Shown here: positions 1 through 20,000 of the stretch, piece by piece
How positions within the stretch are numbered: position 1 is the stretch's first letter
How the letters are laid out: each line of letters opens with the position of its first letter
Source of the DNA: Chiloscyllium plagiosum
Lineage: Eukaryota
DNA length: 20,000 bases
Assembly: GCF_004010195.1 (NCBI RefSeq)
Contig: NC_057718.1
Span: 102,547,687 to 102,567,686, forward strand
Reading direction: 5' to 3'
Made by a program: the position numbers and the translations under genes
Notes under the pieces: generated by a model
The model's database searches: none
What the model saw: only the letters and a program-made list of their open reading frames with translations
What the model was told of the DNA's origin: nothing

Positions 1-363
1 AAACAACACGAACAGCTATCCTTAGTAGCCAAACACGCAGACAACAAGCAACATGAATTCGACTGGGACAACACTACTATCATAGGGCAAGCCAGACAGA
101 AAACAGCCAGGGAATTCCTAGAGGCATGGCATTCATCCACAAACTCCATCAACAAACACATCGACCTGGACCCAATATACCAACCACTAAAGCGGACAGC
201 TGAAACTGACAACCGGAAATGGCAGGGACAGACCACTATAAACACCGGAGAAAACATCAAAGAAGTGCTTCGCAGGAGGCCCCCAAGCACTGATGATGTC
301 GCCTAGCCAGGGGACGAAACGTTTGCAACAAAAACTTCCAGCTCGGCGAACAGAACCACAACA
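1..363 (+). mobile_element. 3' end of a Penelope-like element (GIY-YIG endonuclease C-terminus plus pseudo-LTR); runs off the left edge
   Basis: Frame 1 is open from 1 to 306: KQHEQLSLVAKHADNKQHEFDWDNTTIIGQARQKTAREFLEAWHSSTNSINKHIDLDPIY...STDDVA*. It is homologous to the GIY-YIG tail at 5700-5890 and contains a hammerhead motif. Confidence 0.9.
287..326 (+). ncRNA. Minimal type I hammerhead ribozyme motif
   Basis: gca-CTGATGA-t-gtcgcc/tagcca/ggggac (one G.G mismatch)-GAAA-cg-TT-tgc. Stem I is gca/tgc; palindromic AACGTT replaces stem III; the cleavage triplet is GUU. Confidence 0.8.
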
Positions 364-1619: not shown

Positions 1620-1901
1620 CTTAGATAAGTATGGAAACAGGCCCTTTGACCCAACAAGTCCGCACCAACCCTCCGAAGAGTAACCCACCCAGACCCATGC
1701 CCGCACCCTATATTTACCGCTGATTAATGCTCCTAACAGTATGGACAATTGAGCATGGCCAATTAACCTGACCTACACATTTGCATTGTGGGAGGAAATC
1801 CACACAGACATGGGGAGAATGTGCAAACTCCACACTCCTGAGGCAGAATTGAACCCAGGTTACTGGTGCTGTTCATCAGCAGTGCTAACCAGAGCCATAC
1901 C
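1620..1901 (-). mobile_element. HE1-type SINE (V-SINE), older copy
   Basis: The reverse complement aligns by eye with the 7012-7322 copy (tRNA head, 'gagtttgcac.ttctcccc.tgtctg', tail 'gggcctgtttcca'). Confidence 0.88.
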
Positions 1902-2490: not shown

Positions 2491-4178
2491 TTGAGCAGGC
2501 ATCAAATGAACTTCTACAGTTGCTGATGTGCTGAGACATAGTTCTGCAGCTGCCAACTGTCCAGTAGATGCTCTTGCTAAAATTTTCGTTTCAGATTCAT
2601 GCTGGTTGTTGAATGGTGGGGTTGCTTTTGGAATATCAATGAAACTTTGCATTTATAGAAAGCACAAAGAGCACGTTCAGTTGGCGGTGATCGAAGCACT
2701 ATGATTAATGCAGGCAATGTTCAAAAAGTGTACAGATTTTCTGTCCTTGTTTCCCAGGACTGGGTCCTTTATATTTTTGCCCAGGTGAGATCTGATGGCT
2801 CAGCACAAACCAAAATTTAACACTAGGACCTTTCTTTGTCATCGGTGTTGAATTAAGCCATACAATCAGTCAATTGAATTAAAATATTTTAGTTCCTATC
2901 TTGAAGAATTTGGTTCTTTTTTAATCACTTGCAAATACTTTTCAGGTAGTGGTTAGTACTTGGTGGATGGGTTGAATGGAATCTAATGATTTGGGTATGA
3001 GATGCTCTGGCAGTACACCTTTTTATTCTGAGTTGAGTAAGATAGTTAAGAAATTTGAGATTCTTGTTGGTAACAGCAGAGCCCTTATTTTCTTTTTTGA
3101 GTGCATGTTGAGAATTTTATCTGTAGTTGGATGTAAGTTGGGAACCCAGATTGTTCAATTCTCTTCACAATTTTTTTAAGAAAGATTAGTTAAGTTTAAA
3201 CATTGATATTCATGTGCAGGGCCTGCTGTCTTGGGGGCTGGAAACATAAGCAACTGAAGGTATTTTATTCTTTGGATAACAGTGTCAAAACATCTAAAAC
3301 TGATGTTAAGCAGACCATTAAGGTTTTCCCCTTGAAATCTGAAAACCTTTTTGGCACTCAGTCAGTAGCTTGACATATAATTAAGTTTAGTGACTAAATT
3401 TGTGAATAAATCTGCATTACTTTGCTTTTCATTCAAACTTTTGCAGATATGTGGGCATCCTTCACTGTTTTGTAACTGAACCTTTCTTTTGCAGTGATAG
3501 CGTTAAACATGTTTAACATAGTATTTTTCATCAATTTTTAGAGTTTTATCTGCAGTCAGTGTCTTTCCCTCTACTTCTCTCTACACTCTTGCACTGTCCC
3601 TTCCATTCTGCCACATAATTGGCACTTAATGAAGAGTATACGTCAGTTATTGCATACGAGGTTAGTAGTTATTTTGCAATGGAACAATTGTGCTTTTCTT
3701 GCTGACCACGTTCGTTTTGTCAAAACCCTCTTTTCTTTCCCCCACAAAATAAAGAAATGATCTTCACAACATATCCATATATCTGCAGCAAAATAGTAAC
3801 TTTACATGCAGCCTTCATTCAGAAGGACAAAAATCTTATCACTTGTACCATTGGTTGTTTTATAAAGTTCAGGGAGGCAAAATTTAAACTTTCGTTCCTG
3901 TGTCAATGCACATCCACTGGAATTCAGTAAATGGCAATTTTATCGTTGCTGTTTGTTGTTGGCATCACTTCAGCTAGATGTAATGTTAATATATTTATAC
4001 TGTTGACAAGAAATTTCTGCTACCATCATAAAATAATGAGATGATTATCTTTCCAGGGCTCATACTGTTAACATCTAACAATTCATATAGCTAGTTCAAA
4101 TTCAAGTTGTTTGCTCCTAACCCTTGCCAAAACAAAGCCCTCATTAATTCACAACTTGAAAGAAAGGATATGGTGTCA

Positions 4179-5443
4179 GCTAGTTTTGAGAAGATGTGTA
4201 GTTCAGGTTGAGGTTCTGGATGTAGGTTTGCTAGCTAAGCTGGAAGGTTCATGTTCAGACGTTTTGTCACCATACTAGGTAACATCTTCAGTGAGCCTCC
4301 GGGCAAACCATTGCTGACGATTCCTGCTTTCTATTTATATGCTTGGGTTTCTTTGGGTTGGTGATGTCATTTCCTGTTCTTTTTCTCGGTGGTGAATCAG
4401 GTCCAAGTCATTGTTTGTTTGTTGACAAAGTTCTTTTTGGAATGCCATGGTTCTAGGAATTCTCGTGCGTGTCTCTGTTTGGCTTGTCCTAAGGTGGATG
4501 TATTGTCCCAGTCGAAGTGGTGTCTTTCCTCATCTGTACATAATGATATTAGTGAGAGAGGGTCATGTCATTTTGTGGCTAGGTGATGTTCATGTATCCT
4601 GGTGGCTAGTTTTCTGCCTGTTTGTCCAATGTAGTGTTTGTTACAGTCCTTGGATGATATTTTGTAAATGACATTAGTTTTGCTTGTTGTTCGTATAGGG
4701 TCTTTCAAGTTCATTAGTTGCTGTTTTATTGTGTTGGTGGGTTTGTGGGCTACCATGATGCCAAGGGGTCTGAGTAGTCTGGCAGTCATTTCCAAGATGT
4801 CGTTGATGCAGGGGGCAGAGTGGCTAGGATTTCTGGACATGTTTTGTCTGCTGGTTTGGGTTTGCTGCTGAGAAATCTGTGGATTGTGTTCATTTGGTAC
4901 CTGTTCTTTTTGAATACTTGGAAAAAAAGGTGATTTTCCTCTGCTCTGCATAGTTTCTGTGAGCTGGCTCTTTGGAATAATGTTCTGATGCTGCTTCATT
5001 TGTGGATGTTGGGATGATTGCTTCTGTAGTTCAATATTTGGCCCCTATGTATTTTCCTGTAGATGCTGGTTTGAAGTTGGCTGTTTGCTCTCTGTGACAT
5101 CGAGAAATGGCAGTTTGTTGTTTATTTTCCTCCTCTTTAGTCAATTTTATGCTACTAATGGTGCTATTGATGGTTTTGAAGCTATCTTCTAATTTGTTCT
5201 GTTTAGTGATGACAAAGGTGTCATCCATGTAGCGGATCCAAAGTTTGGATTGGCTGGTTGGCAGAGCTGGTTTGAGTCTCTGCTAAGTACTCTGATATTG
5301 GAGATCCCATGGGTGTTCCGTTGGCTTGTCTGTAGGTTTTGTTGTTGAAGGTGAAGTGGGTGGTAAGGTATAGGTCCATTAGCTTGACAATACTGTCCTT
5401 GCTGATGAAGTTGGTGGTGTTTGTATCTTTTGGGTCTTCTCAT
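4179..5443 (-). mobile_element. 5'-truncated, decayed Penelope-like element (RT C-terminal part, GIY-YIG, pseudo-LTR); left arm of the inverted insertion
   Basis: The minus strand gives RT motifs NGTPMGSPIS (about 5295-5325) and KLWIRYMDDTFVI (about 5205-5245), and the GIY-YIG motif NVIYKI..KDCNKHYIGQTGRKLATRIHEH. It carries frameshifts and CGA>TGA stops. Confidence 0.93.
4255..4294 (-). ncRNA. Hammerhead motif, probably inactivated
   Basis: Minus strand: tca-CTGAAGA-t-gttacc/tagtat/ggtgac-AAAA-cg-TC-tga. GAAA is mutated to AAAA (catalytic G12 lost by CpG-type decay). Confidence 0.75.
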
Positions 5444-5460
5444 AGTGTAGTTACTACACT

Positions 5461-6094
5461 CCTCTCCTCTCCTACATCAAAGACATCTCGGAAATGACTG
5501 CCAGACTACTCAGACCCCTTGGCATCATGGTAGCCCACAAACCCACCAACACACTAAAACAGCAGCTAATGAACTTGAAAGACCCTATGCAGACAACAAG
5601 CAAAACTAATGTCATTTACAAAATACCGTGCAAGGACTGTAGCAAACACTACATTGGACAAACAGGCAGAAAACTAGCCACCAGGGTACATGAACATCAC
5701 CTAGCCACAAAACGACATGACCCCCTCTCACTAATATCCTTACATACAGATGAGGAAGGACACCACTTCGACTGGGAGAACACATCCACCTTAGGACAAG
5801 CCAAACAGAGACACGCATGAGAATTCCTGGAAGCGTGGCATTCCAACCGGAACTCTATCAACAAACACACTGACTTGGACCTGATTTACCACTCCTTGAG
5901 AAATGAACAGAAAATGACATCACCATAGGAAATGCAATCACCAACTCAAAGAAATGCAAGCTTCTAAATAAAAAGTAGGAATCATCAGCAATGGTTCCTC
6001 TGAGCTGATGGAGGCTCACTGAAGATGTTACCTAGTATGGTGATGAAACGTCTGAACATGAACCTTCCAGCTCAGTGAGCAAACCTACATCCAG
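5461..6094 (+). mobile_element. Penelope-like 3' segment (GIY-YIG plus pseudo-LTR); right arm of the inverted insertion
   Basis: ORF 5494-5820 reads NVIYKIPCKDCSKHYIGQTGRKLATRVHEHH...HHFDWEN and continues EFLEAWHS after a premature TGA. It is an inverted copy of about 4215-4825. Confidence 0.93.
6016..6055 (+). ncRNA. Minimal type I hammerhead ribozyme motif with intact core
   Basis: tca-CTGAAGA(6019-6025)-t-GTTACC/tagtat/GGTGAT-GAAA(6045-6048)-cg-TC-tga. GUC triplet, ACGT palindrome, 3-bp stem I. Confidence 0.83.
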
Positions 6095-7011
6095 GATATG
6101 GTGTCATTTAGACCTCATCTAAAAGGACTAAATGACACCGTATGGCATGGAAAGGGTCTCTTTGCGGATCCACTTTTAATACGTTATAGGGAAAATATAG
6201 AGAATGCAGACTTTTTAAATGGGTAGCTCAGAATGGTGGTAACAAATGATTAATAGGCTGATGAAGATGGAACCACTGGTCTGAGGCAACTATATTAAAA
6301 AAAAATTCCTAAATGGTTAGTTATACAAAATCTTCAAATAAAGATACATACTAAGATTTTTGCATTGATTTAGTGATGCACACCTGTGGGTATGGCCTAT
6401 CTGATCCTGCTGTAACTGCATTTTAAGGAATACAGTTTACTTTGGTAAAATACTTTTCTGCAGATGCCATAGTTTTGTTAGATTTTTGAACTTTGTTTGA
6501 CTGCTGTCCTGTAGAAGTGTTTTTATTGTATTCAAAAGAAAGTCATGTGTTGTCACTTTGCTTGGATAAAGTTAAAATATCTATACTTGTATTAATTTTG
6601 TTTGCTGGCAAATCATCTTCACACATGGTTTTGATTTTCTTTTTATTTGCAAATAAAGGTTTGGGTATCTTTCCATTAGGTAGTTTTAAATCTTGAGTGA
6701 ATTTGGGTTTCTGGCCGAACCAGCTAGTGTTGTGTGTACTGTGCTTTATGGTTTCAGCATAGATCGAAAGGTTTGTACCTGCAGAATGAGATTGTTTGCC
6801 TAATGTCCAATCAAGAGTTTATGTACATTGGATTATTCTTTGACTTGTGAATATGATCCAAATTAAAACCCTTCATCTTATATGGTAATTGAGTCTTCCA
6901 ATACAAAACTGCCTATTGAAGGAGTTTGCTTGAGAATGAAATCAAAATTTAGATTGTTTGTTTTTTTTTTATCTTGCCGTTTGTTTCCTTTCACTGGTTA
7001 CACTTTTTTGT

Positions 7012-7322
7012 GGGCGGCACGGTGGCACAGTGGTTAGCACTGCTGCCTCGCAGCGCCAGAGACCCGGGTTCAATTCCCGCCTCAGGCGACTGACTGTGTG
7101 GAGTTTGCACGTTCTCCCCGTGTCTGCGTGGGTTTCCTCCGGGTGCTCCGGTTTCCTCCCACAGTCCAAAGATGTGCAAGTCAGGTGAATTGGCCATGCT
7201 AAATTGCCCGTAGTGTTAGGTAAAGGGGTAAATGTAGGGGTATGGGTGGGTTACGCTTCGGCGGGTCGGTGTGGACTTGTTGGGCCGAAGGGCCTGTTTC
7301 CACACTGTAAGTAATCTAATCT
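7012..7322 (+). mobile_element. Full-length, young HE1-type SINE (V-SINE)
   Basis: A box TGGCACAGTGG, B box GGTTCAATTCC, V-domain 'ggtttcctccgggtgctccggtttcctcccac', CR1-like tail ending in (taatc)n, many intact CpGs. Confidence 0.93.
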
Positions 7323-7834
7323 TTTGAACAGCACCTGACCAGTTTGATGTTAAAGCTGATGTACAAAAGGCAGATTTCTCAAAGTGCTTGGGTACAAGAC
7401 AGAGTTCTATGTTTTTTTTTGCAAATGTACAGTTGGGTGGAACAATGTATGGACCTAAGATAAGGTGGTGTAGTAAAATGGAGTAGTCAATCATCAAATG
7501 CCGTGGAGAGGTTAAGGGTTCCCACTTCAAGGCTATTGCTGCTTAAGCAGATCGTTGGAATTGAGGTTAACTTGCTTAATGAATTTAGCTTGCTTTAGCT
7601 TAATGAATTCCTTAGCTGGCTGATAAGTTCATTCTGTGATATACAAACTCCATAACGTGGAGCAGGTGGTGCTTGAATGATTGGGCACATAGTGTTTGGA
7701 GATTTATGAACTTGCTCTGAAGTTTTGTCTTCACTTCTACAGTTCCAACAAAATGACTATATTCATTACCTTCCTGAATAAACCTTCCATGTTTTTGGTT
7801 ATGAGCTAGGAACTCTGGTCAATTATCAAAGTTA

Positions 7835-8010
7835 AATACTATTGGTGGTGGAAATCTGAAAGTGTGCTGGAGAAACTCAGCAGATCTGACAGCATCTTTG
7901 GAGAGAGGGAATGAATATTGAATCCAGTATGACACTTTGGAGCTTAAGCTCTTTTCTATCTCTCTCTCTACAGCTGCTGCCAAATCTGAGTTTATCTAGA
8001 GCATTCTACT
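7835..8010. repeat. Degenerate fold-back repeat, probably from an older pseudo-LTR-type mini-element
   Basis: 'tgctggagaaactcagcagatctgacagcatctttggagagag' is imperfectly inverted in 'ctctctctacagctgctgccaaatctgagtttatctagagca'. It resembles the body of 14961-15163, but no ribozyme core is recognisable. Confidence 0.55.
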
Positions 8011-8250
8011 TCTTCAAGTTCCCATGAATTGCAGGGATAATTGATTCAGAATGCTTTCATTATGTTGTCTTTCTGCTGGCTTGCTGGAGTCCCCATCTGT
8101 ACCTGAGTTCTGAGTAGAACAGTTAGCTGTCTGGTGTCCAGCATACGAATTACTTGTTCCAACTGTATTTTCATAATTAGTGCTGAGAATGTGTATAGGT
8201 ATAAGCAGGCAGGGAAAGAGTTAAGTTCTGAGTTTTCTGAAATAAGAGGT

Positions 8251-8528
8251 TCAGCGAGTTTTGTGAAGATTTGTAGTTTAGGTTGAGGTTATGGATGTCG
8301 GCTTGCTGAGCTGGAAGGTTCATGTTCAGATGTTTTATCACTGTACTAAATAACATCTTTAGTGAGCCTCCAGACAAAGCACTGCCGATGATTCCTGCTT
8401 TCTATTTATGTTTGGGTTGGTGATGTCATTTCCTGTTCTTTTTTCAGGGGGTAGTAGAACAGGTCCAAGTCAGTGTATTTGTTGATAGAGTCCAGTTGGA
8501 ATGCCTTGCCTTTAGGAATTCTCGTGTA
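8251..8528 (-). mobile_element. Penelope-like 3' end / pseudo-LTR, same family as 4179-6094, with a degenerate hammerhead at about 8325-8365
   Basis: Colinear with 4176-4468. The core reads CTAAAGA...AAAACATC, with several core mutations. Confidence 0.88.
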
Positions 8529-9010
8529 TGTTGGGACATGACTCAGATCAGATAAGAAATTACAGTTAACAATGGGATGCTGGAGGCAAAGGTAATGGGC
8601 TAACCAGGTGGAAAAGCAGTCATTATGTAGAGCCATTTAACAATATTGGAAGTAATCAGTATGTAAAGTCAGCTAACAAGGTGAAAAGTATTCATTGTAT
8701 GAATCCAGTCAACAAGAACATTGTATAAACAGTAAAGTGCTTGGTCTCTGCTGTTGATACTCATTGATTGTAACGGTCACCTCGTTAATATGTATGTTGC
8801 CATGTCTGGATGCTCCTCCCTGTAATATGACTCTATAATTAATTGAGAACCTATTGTTTGAGAGAAGACTGAACTCCTGTCCCTGTGCACATGGGCGATC
8901 ATTCTCTCTCGCGCTCTCTGTCCCTCCCAGGGGTCGGAATAAAGATGGAGGTAAAATACACTGTCTGTCTGAGCATTTTGCTTCGTGCGGGGGGAGGATA
9001 CGGGATGACA
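8529..9010 (+). mobile_element. Probable solo LTR, copy A
   Basis: Starts TGT and ends ACA; TATA-like 'ctctataatt' near 8833; AATAAA near 8938; colinear with 13488-13912. No clean TSD. Confidence 0.6.
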
Positions 9011-10840: not shown

Positions 10841-11430
10841 TTCTTGTGAAGCTTGAAAGGGTTCAGAAAAGATTTACAATGATATTGCCAGGGTTGGAGG
10901 GTTTCAGCTATAGGGAGAGGCTGAATAGGCTGGGGCTGTTTTCCCTGGAGCATCGGAGGCTAAAGGGTGACCTTATAGAGACTTATGAAATCATGAAGGG
11001 CATGGATAGGGAAAACAGACAAGATGAAAGTGAGGACTGCAGAAGATGGGGATCAGAGTTGAAGAGTGTGGTGCTGGAAAAGCACAGCATCTGAGGACCA
11101 GGAGAATCGACGTTTCTGGTATAAGCCTTCGTCTGGAATAGACGAGGTCTCTTCCCTGGCTTGGGGAAGTCCATAACTAGAGACATAGGTTTGGGATGAG
11201 AGGGGAAGGATATAAAAGAGACCTAAGGGACAACTTATTCACTCAAAGGATGGTGCTTATATGGAATGAGCTGCCAGAGGAAGTATCTAGATGGGTTTAT
11301 AAGTGGGAAGGGTTTGGAGGGATATGGGCCCAGTGCTGACAAATGGGACTAGATTAATTTAGGATATTTGGTTGGCATGGATGAGTTAAGCCAAAGTGTC
11401 TGTTTTCGTGCTGCATATCTCTGACTGACT
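10841..11430 (+). mobile_element. CR1-clade LINE 3' fragment interrupted by a mini-element
   Basis: VKLERVQKRFT.ILPGLEGFSYRERLNRLGLFSLEHRRLKGDLIE; 3' tail 'ctgcatatctctgactgactct'; homologous to 18530-19020. Confidence 0.92.
11024..11136 (-). mobile_element. About 113-bp non-autonomous hammerhead-type mini-element with a degenerate core
   Basis: Minus strand: cCAGACGAaggcttataccaGAAAcgTCgattctcc. Flanked by an imperfect TSD, aacagacaag (11014-11023) / aatagacgag (11137-11146); the CR1 resumes after it. Confidence 0.82.
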
Positions 11431-13369: not shown

Positions 13370-14035
13370 AATTATAGCACAGAAAATCAACTTTTGGCGC
13401 ATTGTTTTTGACCTGCACAGATGCAATCACCTAATTATACTAGTCTCGTTTTCCAGGTCTTGACCGTATAACCTCTTAATGAGAAAGTGTATAAGGCATG
13501 AGTGGGTCAGGAAAGAGTTAAGTTTAGGGTTGCTTGACAAAAGGTTCAGCTAGCATGACTGGAGGTGCTAGAGGCAAGGGTAGTGGGTTGACGAGGTGAA
13601 AAGCCATTTAACAAGGTTACGATCATTCATTGTATAACACCAGATGGCTTAATCTCTACTGTTGACACTTGCTGCTTGTAACGGTAACCCAATCAATATA
13701 GGTGTTGCCTTATTTGGATGCTCTTCCCTGTACTTGACTATATATTTCCTCAAGAATCTGCTGTTTGAAAGGAGACTGAGAACTCATGTCTCTGTGCACA
13801 TGGGCGATTGTTTTCTCTCCCTCCAGGGTCCAGAAGATGAAGGAATTAAAACTATACTGTGTCTCTGAGCATTTTGCTTCAACTGATATGGGAACAGGGA
13901 AACAGGACGACAATAAGCCTTGCATTGCAGGTACCCATCGGAATACCACAAGTGTTATAAGTTTCAGATTCTCATCACCCTCTGCGTGAAAACGTTGTTA
14001 CACTCATCTCTAAATCTCTGCTTTTCCCTTAAAGT
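13370..14035 (-). mobile_element. Old CR1 3' end split by the LTR at 13488-13912
   Basis: 'cagattctcatcaccctctgcgtgaaaa...ctctaaatct' resembles the reverse complement of the CR1 segment 'RFFTQRVV..WN'. Confidence 0.4.
13488..13912 (+). mobile_element. Probable solo LTR, copy B
   Basis: Starts TGT and ends ACA. Shares blocks with 8529-9010 ('ttgtaacggt', 'ggatgctc.tccctgta', 'ctgtgcacatgggcgat', 'ctgagcattttgcttc'). TATA-like motif near 13740 and ATTAAA near 13845. Confidence 0.6.
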
Positions 14036-14727: not shown

Positions 14728-14960
14728 TAGCTTTTAACACATTGTTATTGGAGAGCATGATTTCCTTCACAGTTCAGTGGCTGGCTGTATGACCTAAAAT
14801 GAGAAGGGATATTTGGTGGCAAGTAAGAATGATCTGTGTGCCGGAAGAATTTGTGGCTATTTAAAAGTATGAATATTTTGGTGGACATCTGATTATTGGG
14901 ACTACAATGTAGACAGCCAGAAGGCTGGAAGAACACAGCAAGCCAGGCAGCATCAGGAGG

Positions 14961-15163
14961 TGAAAATGTGTTGCTGGAAAAGTGCAGCAGGTGAGGCAGC
15001 ATCCAAGGAACAGGAGAATCAACGTTTAGGGCATAAGCCCGAAGAAGGGCTTATGCCCGAAACGTCGATTCTCCTGTTCCTTGGATGTTGCCTGACCACC
15101 TACGCTTTTCCAGCAACACATTTTCAGCTCTAATCTCCAGCGTCTGCAGACCTCACTTTTTCC
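14961..15163. mobile_element. Head-to-head inverted dimer of the hammerhead mini-element (80-bp arms, 6-nt loop)
   Basis: 14961-15040 is a near-perfect reverse complement of 15047-15126. The + strand core is CCGAAGA-a-gggc/ttat/gccc-GAAA-cg-TC (15039-15066). A related fragment lies at about 14912-14960. Confidence 0.9.
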
Positions 15164-16500: not shown

Positions 16501-16540
16501 GGAAATGAAGCGAGTTATCCCCTTGAGATGTGCTCACACT
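16501..16540 (+). CDS. ppp3r1: Coding exon 2 (40 nt) of calcineurin subunit B type 1; start ATG and downstream exons lie outside the window
   Basis: Acceptor ...actttgatctttttcag| and donor |gtaagt. Translation GGA AAT GAA GCG AGT TAT CCC CTT GAG ATG TGC TCA CAC T gives GNEASYPLEMCSH(F), matching the vertebrate CnB1 N-terminus MGNEASYPLEMCSHFD. Phase 0 / phase 1 boundaries match the recalled structure in which exon 1 contributes only the ATG. Confidence 0.96.
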
Positions 16541-17630: not shown

Positions 17631-17750
17631 ATTTAATGTCTCAGTGAAGCTTATTTAAAAACTGATTTGATTTGATTAATTTTATTCATTCATTAGAAAC
17701 ACAGCATCGATGAAATAGATAAATTTATCTGACAAGTTTCACAGATCAGT

Positions 17751-17848
17751 TCTCAGAATTGCTCATGAGTACCCTTTTGACGAGAAGAGCTCTCACGCCT
17801 GAGTCACCTTCACGTCTCAGGTATTGCTCATGAGTACCCTTTCGACGA
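17751..17848. repeat. Two 33-34 bp direct repeats separated by 31 bp
   Basis: tctcagaattgctcatgagtacccttttgacga (17751-17783) and tctcaggtattgctcatgagtaccctttcgacga (17815-17848). Confidence 0.9.
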
Positions 17849-17929
17849 CTCAGATCTTTTTAAATATTACCCTCCCGTATCCCCAAGCAATTTTGTACTT
17901 AACATCTCATGTTGCTCAAGCAGTGACTT

Positions 17930-18020
17930 GAGAAAAGTGAGGACTACAGATGCTGGAGATCAGAGTCAAAAAGTATGGTGCTGGAAAAGCAGGCAGCATC
18001 CTAGGAGCAGAAGAGTCGAC
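17930..18020 (-). mobile_element. Mini-element fragment of the 11024/15047 family lacking the ribozyme core
   Basis: Colinear with 11026-11111 ('aaagtgaggact.caga..tgg.gatcagagt...ggtgctggaaaagca...gcatc...gtcgac'). Confidence 0.85.
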
Positions 18021-18231: not shown

Positions 18232-19022
18232 AAATAAGTGCGAGGTGATGCATTTTGGGAAAGCAAATCTTAGCAGGACTTATACACTTTATCGTAAGGT
18301 CCTAGGGATTGTTGCTGAACAGAGACCTTGGAGTGGAGGTTCATAGCTCCTTGAAAGTGGAGTCGCAGGTAGGTAGAATAGTGAAGTAGACGTTTGGTAT
18401 GCTTTCCTTTGTTGGTCAGAGTATTGAGTACAGGAGTTGGGAGGTCATGTTGCGGCTGTAGAGGACATTGGTTAGGCCACTGTTAGAATATTGCGTGCAT
18501 TTCTGGTCTCCTTCCTATCGGAAAGATGTTGTGAAACTTGAAAGGGTTCAGAAAAGATTTACAAGGATGTTGCCATGGTTGGAGGATCTGAGCTACAGGC
18601 AGAGGCTGAACAGGCTGGGGCTGTTTTCCCTGCAGCGATGGAGGCTGAGGGGTGATCTTATAGAGGTTTACACAATCATGAGGGGCATGGATAGGATAAA
18701 TAGAAAAAGTCTTTTGGGGTCAGGGAGTCCTGAACTAGAGGGCAGAGGTTTATGGTGAGAGGGGAAAGATATAAAAGAGACCTAAGGGGCAACCTTTTCA
18801 TGCATAGGGTGGTACGTGTTTGGAATGAGCTGCCAGAGGATGTGGTGGAGGCTGGTAAAATTGTAGTATGTAACAGGCATTTGGGTGGGTATATGAATAG
18901 GAAGGGTTTGGAGGGATATGGGCCGGGTGCTGGCAGGTGGGACTATATTGGGTTGAGATCTGGTTGGCATGGACGGGTTGGACCGAAGGGTCTGTTTCCA
19001 TGCTGTACATCTCTATGACTAT
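18232..19022 (+). mobile_element. CR1-clade LINE 3' end (about 790 bp, frameshifted ORF2 C-terminus)
   Basis: KCEVMHFG...LVRPLLEYCVHFWSPSYRKDVVKLERVQKRFTRMLP...RVWNELPE. The tail 'gggtctgtttccatgctgtacatctctatgact' is shared with the HE1 SINE tail. Confidence 0.95.
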
Positions 19023-19595
19023 CCGATTCGGTTCAAATATCAAAAGTAGTACGTAACCACAACTTACCTTCACCCACTTCTTCTATGCAACTGTTTTAGG
19101 ATATTTGAAAATATTCCTCAGAAATGATGACATAATGTTGGCCAATTTGACGATTCGCATGTTGACAATAAAACTGTCTTTCTGAAAATACATTTTTAAA
19201 AAAAAACTTGTAATATCTTTTAGACAGGATCAAATTTGAAATATGAGCCTCTTTTCAACTTTTATTCCATCTGACTCTTGCCAGCATCACCAACCTATTC
19301 CTTTGTGGCACCCACTGAAACACATAATTCCATTTATGTCAAATGCAACCTAGCATGTTTGACAAACTGTGGTGGAAATGGCCCTACTCTACAGCAATTT
19401 ACAGTTCGTGTTGAGATATAGATCAAGCATGATCTAACAGGTTGGCAAAACAGGCATGAGATACTAAATGGCTGCCTCCTATTCATAGAAACATAGAACA
19501 TAGAAAAAAAATACAGCGCAGTACAGGCCCTTTGGCCCTCGATCTTACGCCGAACCAAGCCCATCTAACCTACACAAGCCCACTATCCTCCATAT

Positions 19596-19690
19596 TCTGG
19601 ATCAGTGGTGCTGGAAGAGCACAGCAATTCAGGCAGCATCCGAGGACAGGCAAAATCGACGTTTCGGGCAAAAGCCCTTCATCAGGAATA
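19596..19690 (-). mobile_element. 95-bp hammerhead-bearing mini-element with a perfect 11-bp TSD
   Basis: TSD atcctccatat at 19585-19595 and 19691-19701. It interrupts the CR1 3' region. Confidence 0.9.
19655..19688 (-). ncRNA. Minimal type I hammerhead ribozyme with a fully canonical core
   Basis: Minus strand: ttc-CTGATGA-a-GGGC/tttt/GCCC-GAAA-cg-TC-gat. Predicted cleavage is between 19658 and 19657; stem I is only about 2 bp in this context. Confidence 0.85.
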
Positions 19691-20000
19691 ATCCTCCATA
19701 TGCCTATCCAATGCCTGTTTAAATGCCCATAAAGAGGGAGAGTCCACGACTGCTACTGGCGGGGGCATTCCATGAACTCACGATGCGCTGAGTAAAGAAT
19801 CTACCCCTAACATCTGTCCTATACCTACCACCCCTTAATTTAAAGCTATGCCCCCTCATAATAGCTGACTCCATACGTGGAAAAAGGTTCTCATGGTCAA
19901 CCCTATCTAAACCCCTAATCATCTTGTACACCTCTATCAAGTCACCCCTAAACCTTCTTTTCTCCAATGAAAACAGCCCCAAGTGCCTCAGCCATTCCTC

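Follow-up and report, generated by a model that had tools for sequence, protein, structure and literature searches.

Short hammerhead-bearing insertions in Chiloscyllium plagiosum DNA as probable end modules of a Penelope-like element

Minimal hammerhead ribozymes are known from the pseudo-LTRs of metazoan Penelope-like elements (PLEs), where, in the available text of Cervera and de la Pena 2014 (PMC4209133), they occur mostly as solo motifs or opposite-strand pairs that stem from truncated PLEs. The class of sequence described below is thus already known, since solo PLE hammerheads have been described across animals. Such minimal motifs cleave poorly, and only as dimers, in the accounts given there and in the accessible part of a review (PMC6765202). 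Insertions of endonuclease-bearing PLEs typically show 5' truncation, an adjacent inverted copy, an optional 30-40-bp tail and an 8-10-bp target-site duplication (PMC3846280, PMC8557442 and PMC2377424, in the portions available). In the in vitro work, as far as the available text of PMC11167929 presents it, the tail corresponds to the interval that separates two internal start sites of the reverse transcriptase (RT), the main substrate is uncut RNA and insertion does not need hammerhead cleavage.

A second relevant group is the metazoan non-LTR retrozymes, whose defining features in the accessible part of PMC7229834 are tandem units of 150-450 bp. The available text of a preprint (10.64898/2026.07.22.740005) makes the case that PLE ends gave rise to animal retrozymes and includes a count of these for one chondrichthyan; the family analysed here could be listed in its supplements. 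Neither the available text nor two supplement files of PMC4209133 mention cartilaginous fish, and the available text of PMC6155905 holds nothing further on sharks. Our literature search, which covered few subscription papers, returned no description of this family or of the run-off idea discussed in the last section, and a search for two family motifs gave an unrelated match only.

A 95-bp insertion and its relatives in the window

The window (the whole 20,000-nucleotide stretch of DNA that was analysed) contains, near its end, a 95-bp insertion whose ribozyme strand is minus and which lies within a LINE-like repeat:

19480-20000, minus strand: host repeat, LINE-like 3' end with a short-repeat tail (blastn, multi-copy depth)
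19585-19595, plus strand: left copy of the target-site duplication (repeat scan, empty-site joint)
19596-19690, minus strand: putative end module without tail, its 3' end 62 nt past C17 (alignment, repeat scan)
19654-19689, minus strand: minimal type I hammerhead motif, cleavage only predicted (descriptor, alignment, profile model)
19691-19701, plus strand: right copy of the target-site duplication (repeat scan, empty-site joint)

The host repeat, which we take to be CR1, matches repeats at 10931-11011 and 18616-18695 (blastn) and carries its tail repeat at 19484-19506. The insertion is bounded by a perfect 11-bp duplication, ATCCTCCATAT, one of four perfect repeats of at least 11 bases spaced 60-250 apart in the window. 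We aligned four public sequencing runs (three of DNA and one of RNA, X21) to 19380-19800, and in three of the four (X1, X12 and 49 reads of X21) detected an empty-site joint from 19584 to 19691, which skips 106 bases with 11 letters fitting either side. Because the host repeat is multi-copy, this joint reflects other host copies and is not a demonstration for the locus itself; it proves insertion with duplication, and not polymorphism at 19596-19690. The 95-bp insertion with a perfect duplication that the first-pass annotation had proposed is confirmed by the repeat scan together with this joint, and a chance duplication as the source of the ATCCTCCATAT pair was rejected.

Alignment and blastn placed six pieces in one family: 19596-19690 and the first five of the following, the last entry being a more distant relative.

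11024-11140, minus strand: tailed relative that lacks 12 nt internally and has a degenerate core and stem II (blastn, alignment)
15041-15163, plus strand: tailed right arm of an inverted pair; starts at core G5, core incomplete
14961-15040, minus strand: tailless left arm of that pair; starts at stem II
17930-18020, minus strand: related copy with tail; likeness ends at the GUC triplet, core absent or decayed
14912-14960, minus strand: short, more diverged module fragment adjoining the inverted pair (blastn, alignment)
7835-8010, two inverted arms: decayed sister-family hairpin without an intact core (blastn, repeat scan)

The five longer pieces are 82-94% alike over ungapped aligned columns, and all six together make up 553 of the 20,000 bases. 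An intact core is present in the 19596 copy alone (1/6), although in the 17930 copy a core-like remnant may reach about 18039. The duplication around the 11024 copy is imperfect, with 8 of 10 letters shared between 11014-11023 and 11137-11146 (seen by eye; the automatic scan did not call it), and the repeat scan found no duplication flanking 14961-15163, 17930-18020 or 7835-8010. The relatives claimed earlier were therefore recovered, with an imperfect duplication at 11024 and degraded cores outside the 19596 copy; of the two older relatives suggested, 14912-14960 aligns within the family and 7835-8010 is the more distant sister hairpin. Weak miRNA-type Rfam matches at 7880-7990 and 14994-15092 reflect hairpins only and were set aside.

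As the first-pass annotation had stated, the copies have no tRNA head, ORF or poly-A. ARAGORN predicted 0 tRNA genes, no ORF lies inside the copies, and the four family stretches contain neither a B box on either strand nor an A run longer than 5, while the same box search found both boxes in a control repeat at 7010-7320. A tRNA-derived SINE was rejected on these grounds. The control repeat itself (plus strand, SINE-like) resembles shark tRNA-derived SINEs and has an older inverted relative at 1628-1891 (minus strand). Elsewhere in the window, an unclassified repeat is present at 8600-8990 and again, with 70-75% likeness, at 13490-13880, and the overlapping frames gave no meaningful Pfam match. 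A partial duplication at 17740-17860, with a perfect 20-mer 65 bases apart, immediately precedes the 17930 copy.

The window is likely intronic. A 40-nt exon at 16501-16540 (plus strand), between AG and GT, encodes GNEASYPLEMCSH, the very residues with which mouse calcineurin subunit B type 1 (Ppp3r1; PMC12103767) begins; the intact hammerhead of the 19596 copy lies on the opposite strand to this gene.

On the minus strand the insert reads, in order, five nucleotides, CUGAUGA (19685-19679), a bulged A, a 4-bp stem II, GAAA and CGUC. Stem II (GGGC/GCCC, with a 4-nt loop, 19677-19666) is followed by GAAA, a C-G pair and UC, and the predicted cut falls after 19658. The stem I arms, at 19689-19686 (5') and 19657-19654 (3'), form three of four pairs and one U.U, where a stem I of about 4-5 bp is typical of PLE minimal hammerheads. 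The core (CUGANGA...GAAA...UH), stem II and the bulged base before it, which we used as membership features, are all present; a profile model (R2) gave 47 bits for 19650-19692 and 39 bits for 15032-15074, scores that are partly there by construction and are not independent evidence, because the R2 training set was picked by a pattern from the 19596 copy. Thus the CUGAUGA, 4-bp stem II, GAAA and GUC of the hammerhead core claimed for the 5' end were found, whereas stem I is weak and the motif is minimal rather than canonical. The Rfam search that had been proposed for the hammerhead gave no match at E up to 10, in the window or in 19560-19730.

In its minimal type I core, the bulge ahead of stem II and the G10.1-C11.1 pair, as well as in its palindromic 15.2-16.2 positions, dispersed solo copies and close opposite-strand pairs, the motif resembles the PLE hammerheads in the available text of PMC4209133; it departs from them in having 4 rather than 7-8 base pairs in stem II and a weak stem I with a U.U. 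The palindrome (ACGU) would in principle permit a dimer stem III (self-duplex of -1.7 kcal/mol). The predicted monomer fold, in which the core pairs with the ACGU region, is more stable than the competent fold (-11.4 vs -5.7 kcal/mol), which agrees with the poor, dimer-only cleavage reported for such motifs. The monomer is predicted not to cleave; fold z-scores were not significant.

End classes, abundance and junctions

Measured past C17, the 3' ends of the pieces fall at 59-64 nt in two cases and at about 94-97 nt in three, the latter after restoring 10- and 12-nt deletions. These two classes, some 35 nt apart, match the 30-40-bp tail that lies between the two RT start sites of PLEs, and the inverted pair at 14961-15163 carries the tail on one arm only. 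The 10-11-bp duplications are a further likeness to endonuclease-bearing PLE insertions.

A member of another PLE family in the window served as an internal control:

4165-6106, inverted arms: GIY-YIG PLE insertion (4179-6092) with its 14-bp duplication (Pfam, repeat scan)

This element carries hammerheads at 6019 (plus strand, intact and minimal) and 4291 (minus strand, damaged), the former on the strand shared with the calcineurin B exon. It ends 40 and 79 nt past the cut site, with inverted arms and the tail at one end only, and the inverted pair at 14961-15163 repeats this layout in miniature. Two further PLE 3' ends were noted: 1-362 (plus strand) belongs to another family with a GUU triplet and its core at 290, and 8251-8531 (minus strand) is a decayed copy of the 4179-6092 family. 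The tail, the inversion and the long duplication together support the earlier proposal that a PLE mobilised the short pieces.

What sets the family apart from published PLE insertions is that the copies are only 95-130 bp long, with 5' ends clustered at the hammerhead; the window's remaining PLE pieces each measure about 280 bp or more. The five pieces with a definable 5' end span about 33 nt, from 5 nt upstream of C3 to the cut triplet, and the two that bear duplications begin 5 nt (19596) and 1-5 nt (11024) upstream of C3. The portions of the PLE insertion literature examined hold no account of such clustering. Since the ends cluster, they do not fit plain random truncation, and they would also fit a short master element. 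The refuting outcome named in the first-pass annotation, random 5' truncation of a known PLE, is only half borne out: the pieces look like PLE ends, yet their 5' ends look clustered.

The claim of a very high copy number was upheld by depth ratios across the three DNA runs. In X1, summed contig depth, which is not a copy number, was 3.6-10.9 million over the element vs 13.5 on the unique flank, and over the three DNA runs the ratio of element to flank was 0.8-8 x 10^5, or 2.7 x 10^3 to 2.6 x 10^4 if each base was counted 31 times. From these ratios, which concern two organisms (A and B), we put the copy number of the family at thousands to hundreds of thousands, an abundance that appears far above the 4,000-9,000 motifs of coelacanth and frog given in the available text of PMC4209133.

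Loose ends behind 19689 were the largest group among those listed in every run. In the DNA runs they comprised 1077, 1104 and 878 contigs with an agreement of 0.33-0.34, contig counts that over-weight unique flanks, and in X21 they comprised 386 raw reads with an agreement of 0.47. Their consensus begins GAGG in 4/4 runs (at most 30 letters are visible), which shows that longer copies exist: some copies continue into a common upstream sequence, and in many others unrelated flank begins less than 30 bases out. X21 also holds tail-like loose ends ahead of 19604. Reads of this run came from both strands in similar numbers, with none on the unique flank and no pile of starts or ends, as read from a poly-A single-cell library (about 2% of it read) that is ill suited to linear or circular monomer RNAs.

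Opposite-strand joints occurred in 3/3 DNA runs, and recurrent ones connect the 5' boundary (19686-19690) to 19641-19646. A short stretch at 19641-19646 is complementary to the element's 5' boundary, and the fragment 14912-14960 stops close to this position as well; this stretch may be a fold-back priming site. Among the joints listed, a single one was head-to-tail (19687 to 19611), at single-copy depth in X12.

Origin of the hammerhead type and competing explanations

Using a looser pattern made from the 19596 copy, we found 118 metagenome loci with the same core and stem II, apparently animal host DNA, and 0 loci in viral and prokaryote contigs; family-specific patterns gave 0 loci in viral, metagenome and prokaryote contigs, and none of the 118 resembles the 19596 family beyond the hammerhead. 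Seven of the 118 match the GIY-YIG pieces of the window (tblastn), and in six of these the match is followed on its own strand, 176-344 nt further downstream, by the hammerhead; this hammerhead type is therefore a PLE pseudo-LTR motif. Two loci (L073 and L009) show a C-x4-C-x2-C linker, a mark of Neptune/Nematis PLEs, whereas the window frame 5446-5820 is without it. L073:477-2093 (plus strand) is a broken PLE with RT-like frames, the zinc-finger linker and a GIY-YIG-like end, and the same hammerhead follows about 80 nt after its last stop. Pfam returned weak GIY-YIG matches only, in both window pieces and in 1 of 6 ORFs from L073 and L009, and no RT match in those ORFs. Opposite-strand hammerhead pairs, 31-482 nt apart, were present in 10/118 loci (L013, L021, L027, L031, L036, L041, L057, L094, L107 and L111) and same-strand pairs in 0/118; the same inversion habit is thus seen in other animals.

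We consider it probable that the 95-130-bp pieces are end modules, each a pseudo-LTR end with an optional tail, for which the uncleaved RNA of a third PLE, probably one of Neptune type, served as template; the Neptune assignment of the parent is inferred from the contigs above. Counting against this reading, the 118 comparison loci were themselves selected by a pattern made from the 19596 copy. The third partner that had been postulated gains from the family's difference from the two PLEs of the window, and lacks its ORF-bearing member: no Neptune-type ORF occurs in the window, and the search met only other GIY-YIG pieces. A link between hammerhead and GIY-YIG ORFs was found for the motifs of other animals and, for the 19596 family, not in the window.

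The copies might instead form an independent, SINE-like non-autonomous family, in which self-transcribed masters of 95-130 nt are retroposed in trans by a PLE. The clustered 5' ends, the near-random agreement of contig loose ends at 19689, the very high abundance and subfamily-like variants that differ between runs all lend themselves to such masters: a change at 19655 (A>T) that closes the stem I U.U pair makes up about 20% of depth in X12 and 0.2% in X1. Non-autonomous PLE derivatives are also known in algae, by the available text of PMC8557442. However, with no B box or tRNA head there is no visible promoter for a short master, the upstream continuation is common to 4/4 runs while the contig counts are biased to unique flanks, the 5' ends vary over some 33 nt, and the tail is present or absent as in ordinary PLE insertions. 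We therefore regard an independent family as unlikely.

Much less probable are non-LTR retrozymes, tandem units that self-cleave as dimers, circularise and reinsert. The family shares with them (PMC7229834 and 10.64898/2026.07.22.740005, in their available parts) its non-coding nature, a type I hammerhead, a relationship to PLEs and dispersed monomers, and their report from one chondrichthyan genome, the dimer permitted by the palindrome and the one head-to-tail joint fit this reading. But it has no tandem two-hammerhead units, its unit is shorter than 150-450 bp, its core is intact in one of six pieces, and its ribozyme is minimal, where that of retrozymes is canonical type I with a 6-bp stem I and a loop-loop contact. 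None of the 15 tandem-repeat rows of the window is an array of the unit, and X21 has no pile of RNA starts or ends, though such a library is ill suited to showing one. A circular template would place the element's own 3' end upstream of the core, yet the loose ends there carry a sequence unlike the tail, and the unit is thus not circularly permuted; with neither a tandem array in the window nor circular permutation found, a retrozyme is unsupported. In addition, the copies keep the core upstream of the cut, and a cleaved linear RNA, starting after GUC, could not supply it; the 17930 copy alone is compatible with such a template. The idea of an independent retrozyme-like family spread through self-cleaved or circular RNA, put forward in the first-pass annotation, is thus not supported, given the window's lack of a tandem array and the retained core.

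Least credible is that the motif resembles a hammerhead by chance, or survives without catalytic activity as a relic within some unrelated short repeat: this would suit the missing Rfam match, the U.U pair of stem I and the monomer fold that buries the core, yet the minimal-hammerhead descriptor, with two matches in the window (19685, minus strand, and 6019, plus strand), matches only 3 times in 300 shuffles, the variants listed within 19660-19689 are limited to N7, loop II and one CpG, and 49 distinct motifs outside the window share an identical core and stem II with a covarying stem I (65 double-change cells vs 28.9 shuffled, reached in 0/500 shuffles that ignore the relatedness of motifs, with slid controls far lower). 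A tandem satellite was also rejected.

A model for end-module insertion

If the pieces are end modules of a PLE, the parent's own GIY-YIG endonuclease and RT would paste them in. In the model we propose, whose nicking, two-site priming and fold-back steps are drawn from published PLE work, the PLE protein would bind the RNA near the tail and the endonuclease would nick the target DNA. Reverse transcription would then be primed at one of two internal RNA sites, giving copies with or without the tail, and cDNA synthesis would run back through the uncut hammerhead and stop; fold-back priming would produce the inverted pairs. Most of the resulting copies are predicted to be inactive from the moment of insertion.

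For the 5' boundary at the hammerhead, we favour run-off, at slightly less than even odds. PLE transcripts begin inside the upstream pseudo-LTR (available text of PMC2377424), and the front of stem I is where an intron ends in Drosophila virilis (available text of PMC4209133). The RT start signal would be present in both pseudo-LTRs of a partial-tandem transcript, and a start at the 5' one would yield a cDNA ending at the RNA 5' end, which run-off would place just upstream of the core. An RT that falls off at the ribozyme fold is a possible source of the same boundary, and some other cause an unlikely one. As a tentative proposal, the stubs may be integrated run-off cDNAs begun at the 5'-proximal tail site, the PLE equivalent of strong-stop DNA.

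These pieces matter modestly for annotation, because they take up 553 of the 20,000 bases and can readily be mistaken for SINEs, MITEs or retrozymes. Should run-off prove true, the thousands to hundreds of thousands of copies would mark where the PLE transcript starts and preserve an early intermediate of PLE integration. If the 5' boundary is the RNA start, the family would provide a very large natural dataset on where PLE RT starts and stops, one that would bear on the origin of pseudo-LTRs and inversions, still an open matter in the available text of PMC11167929.
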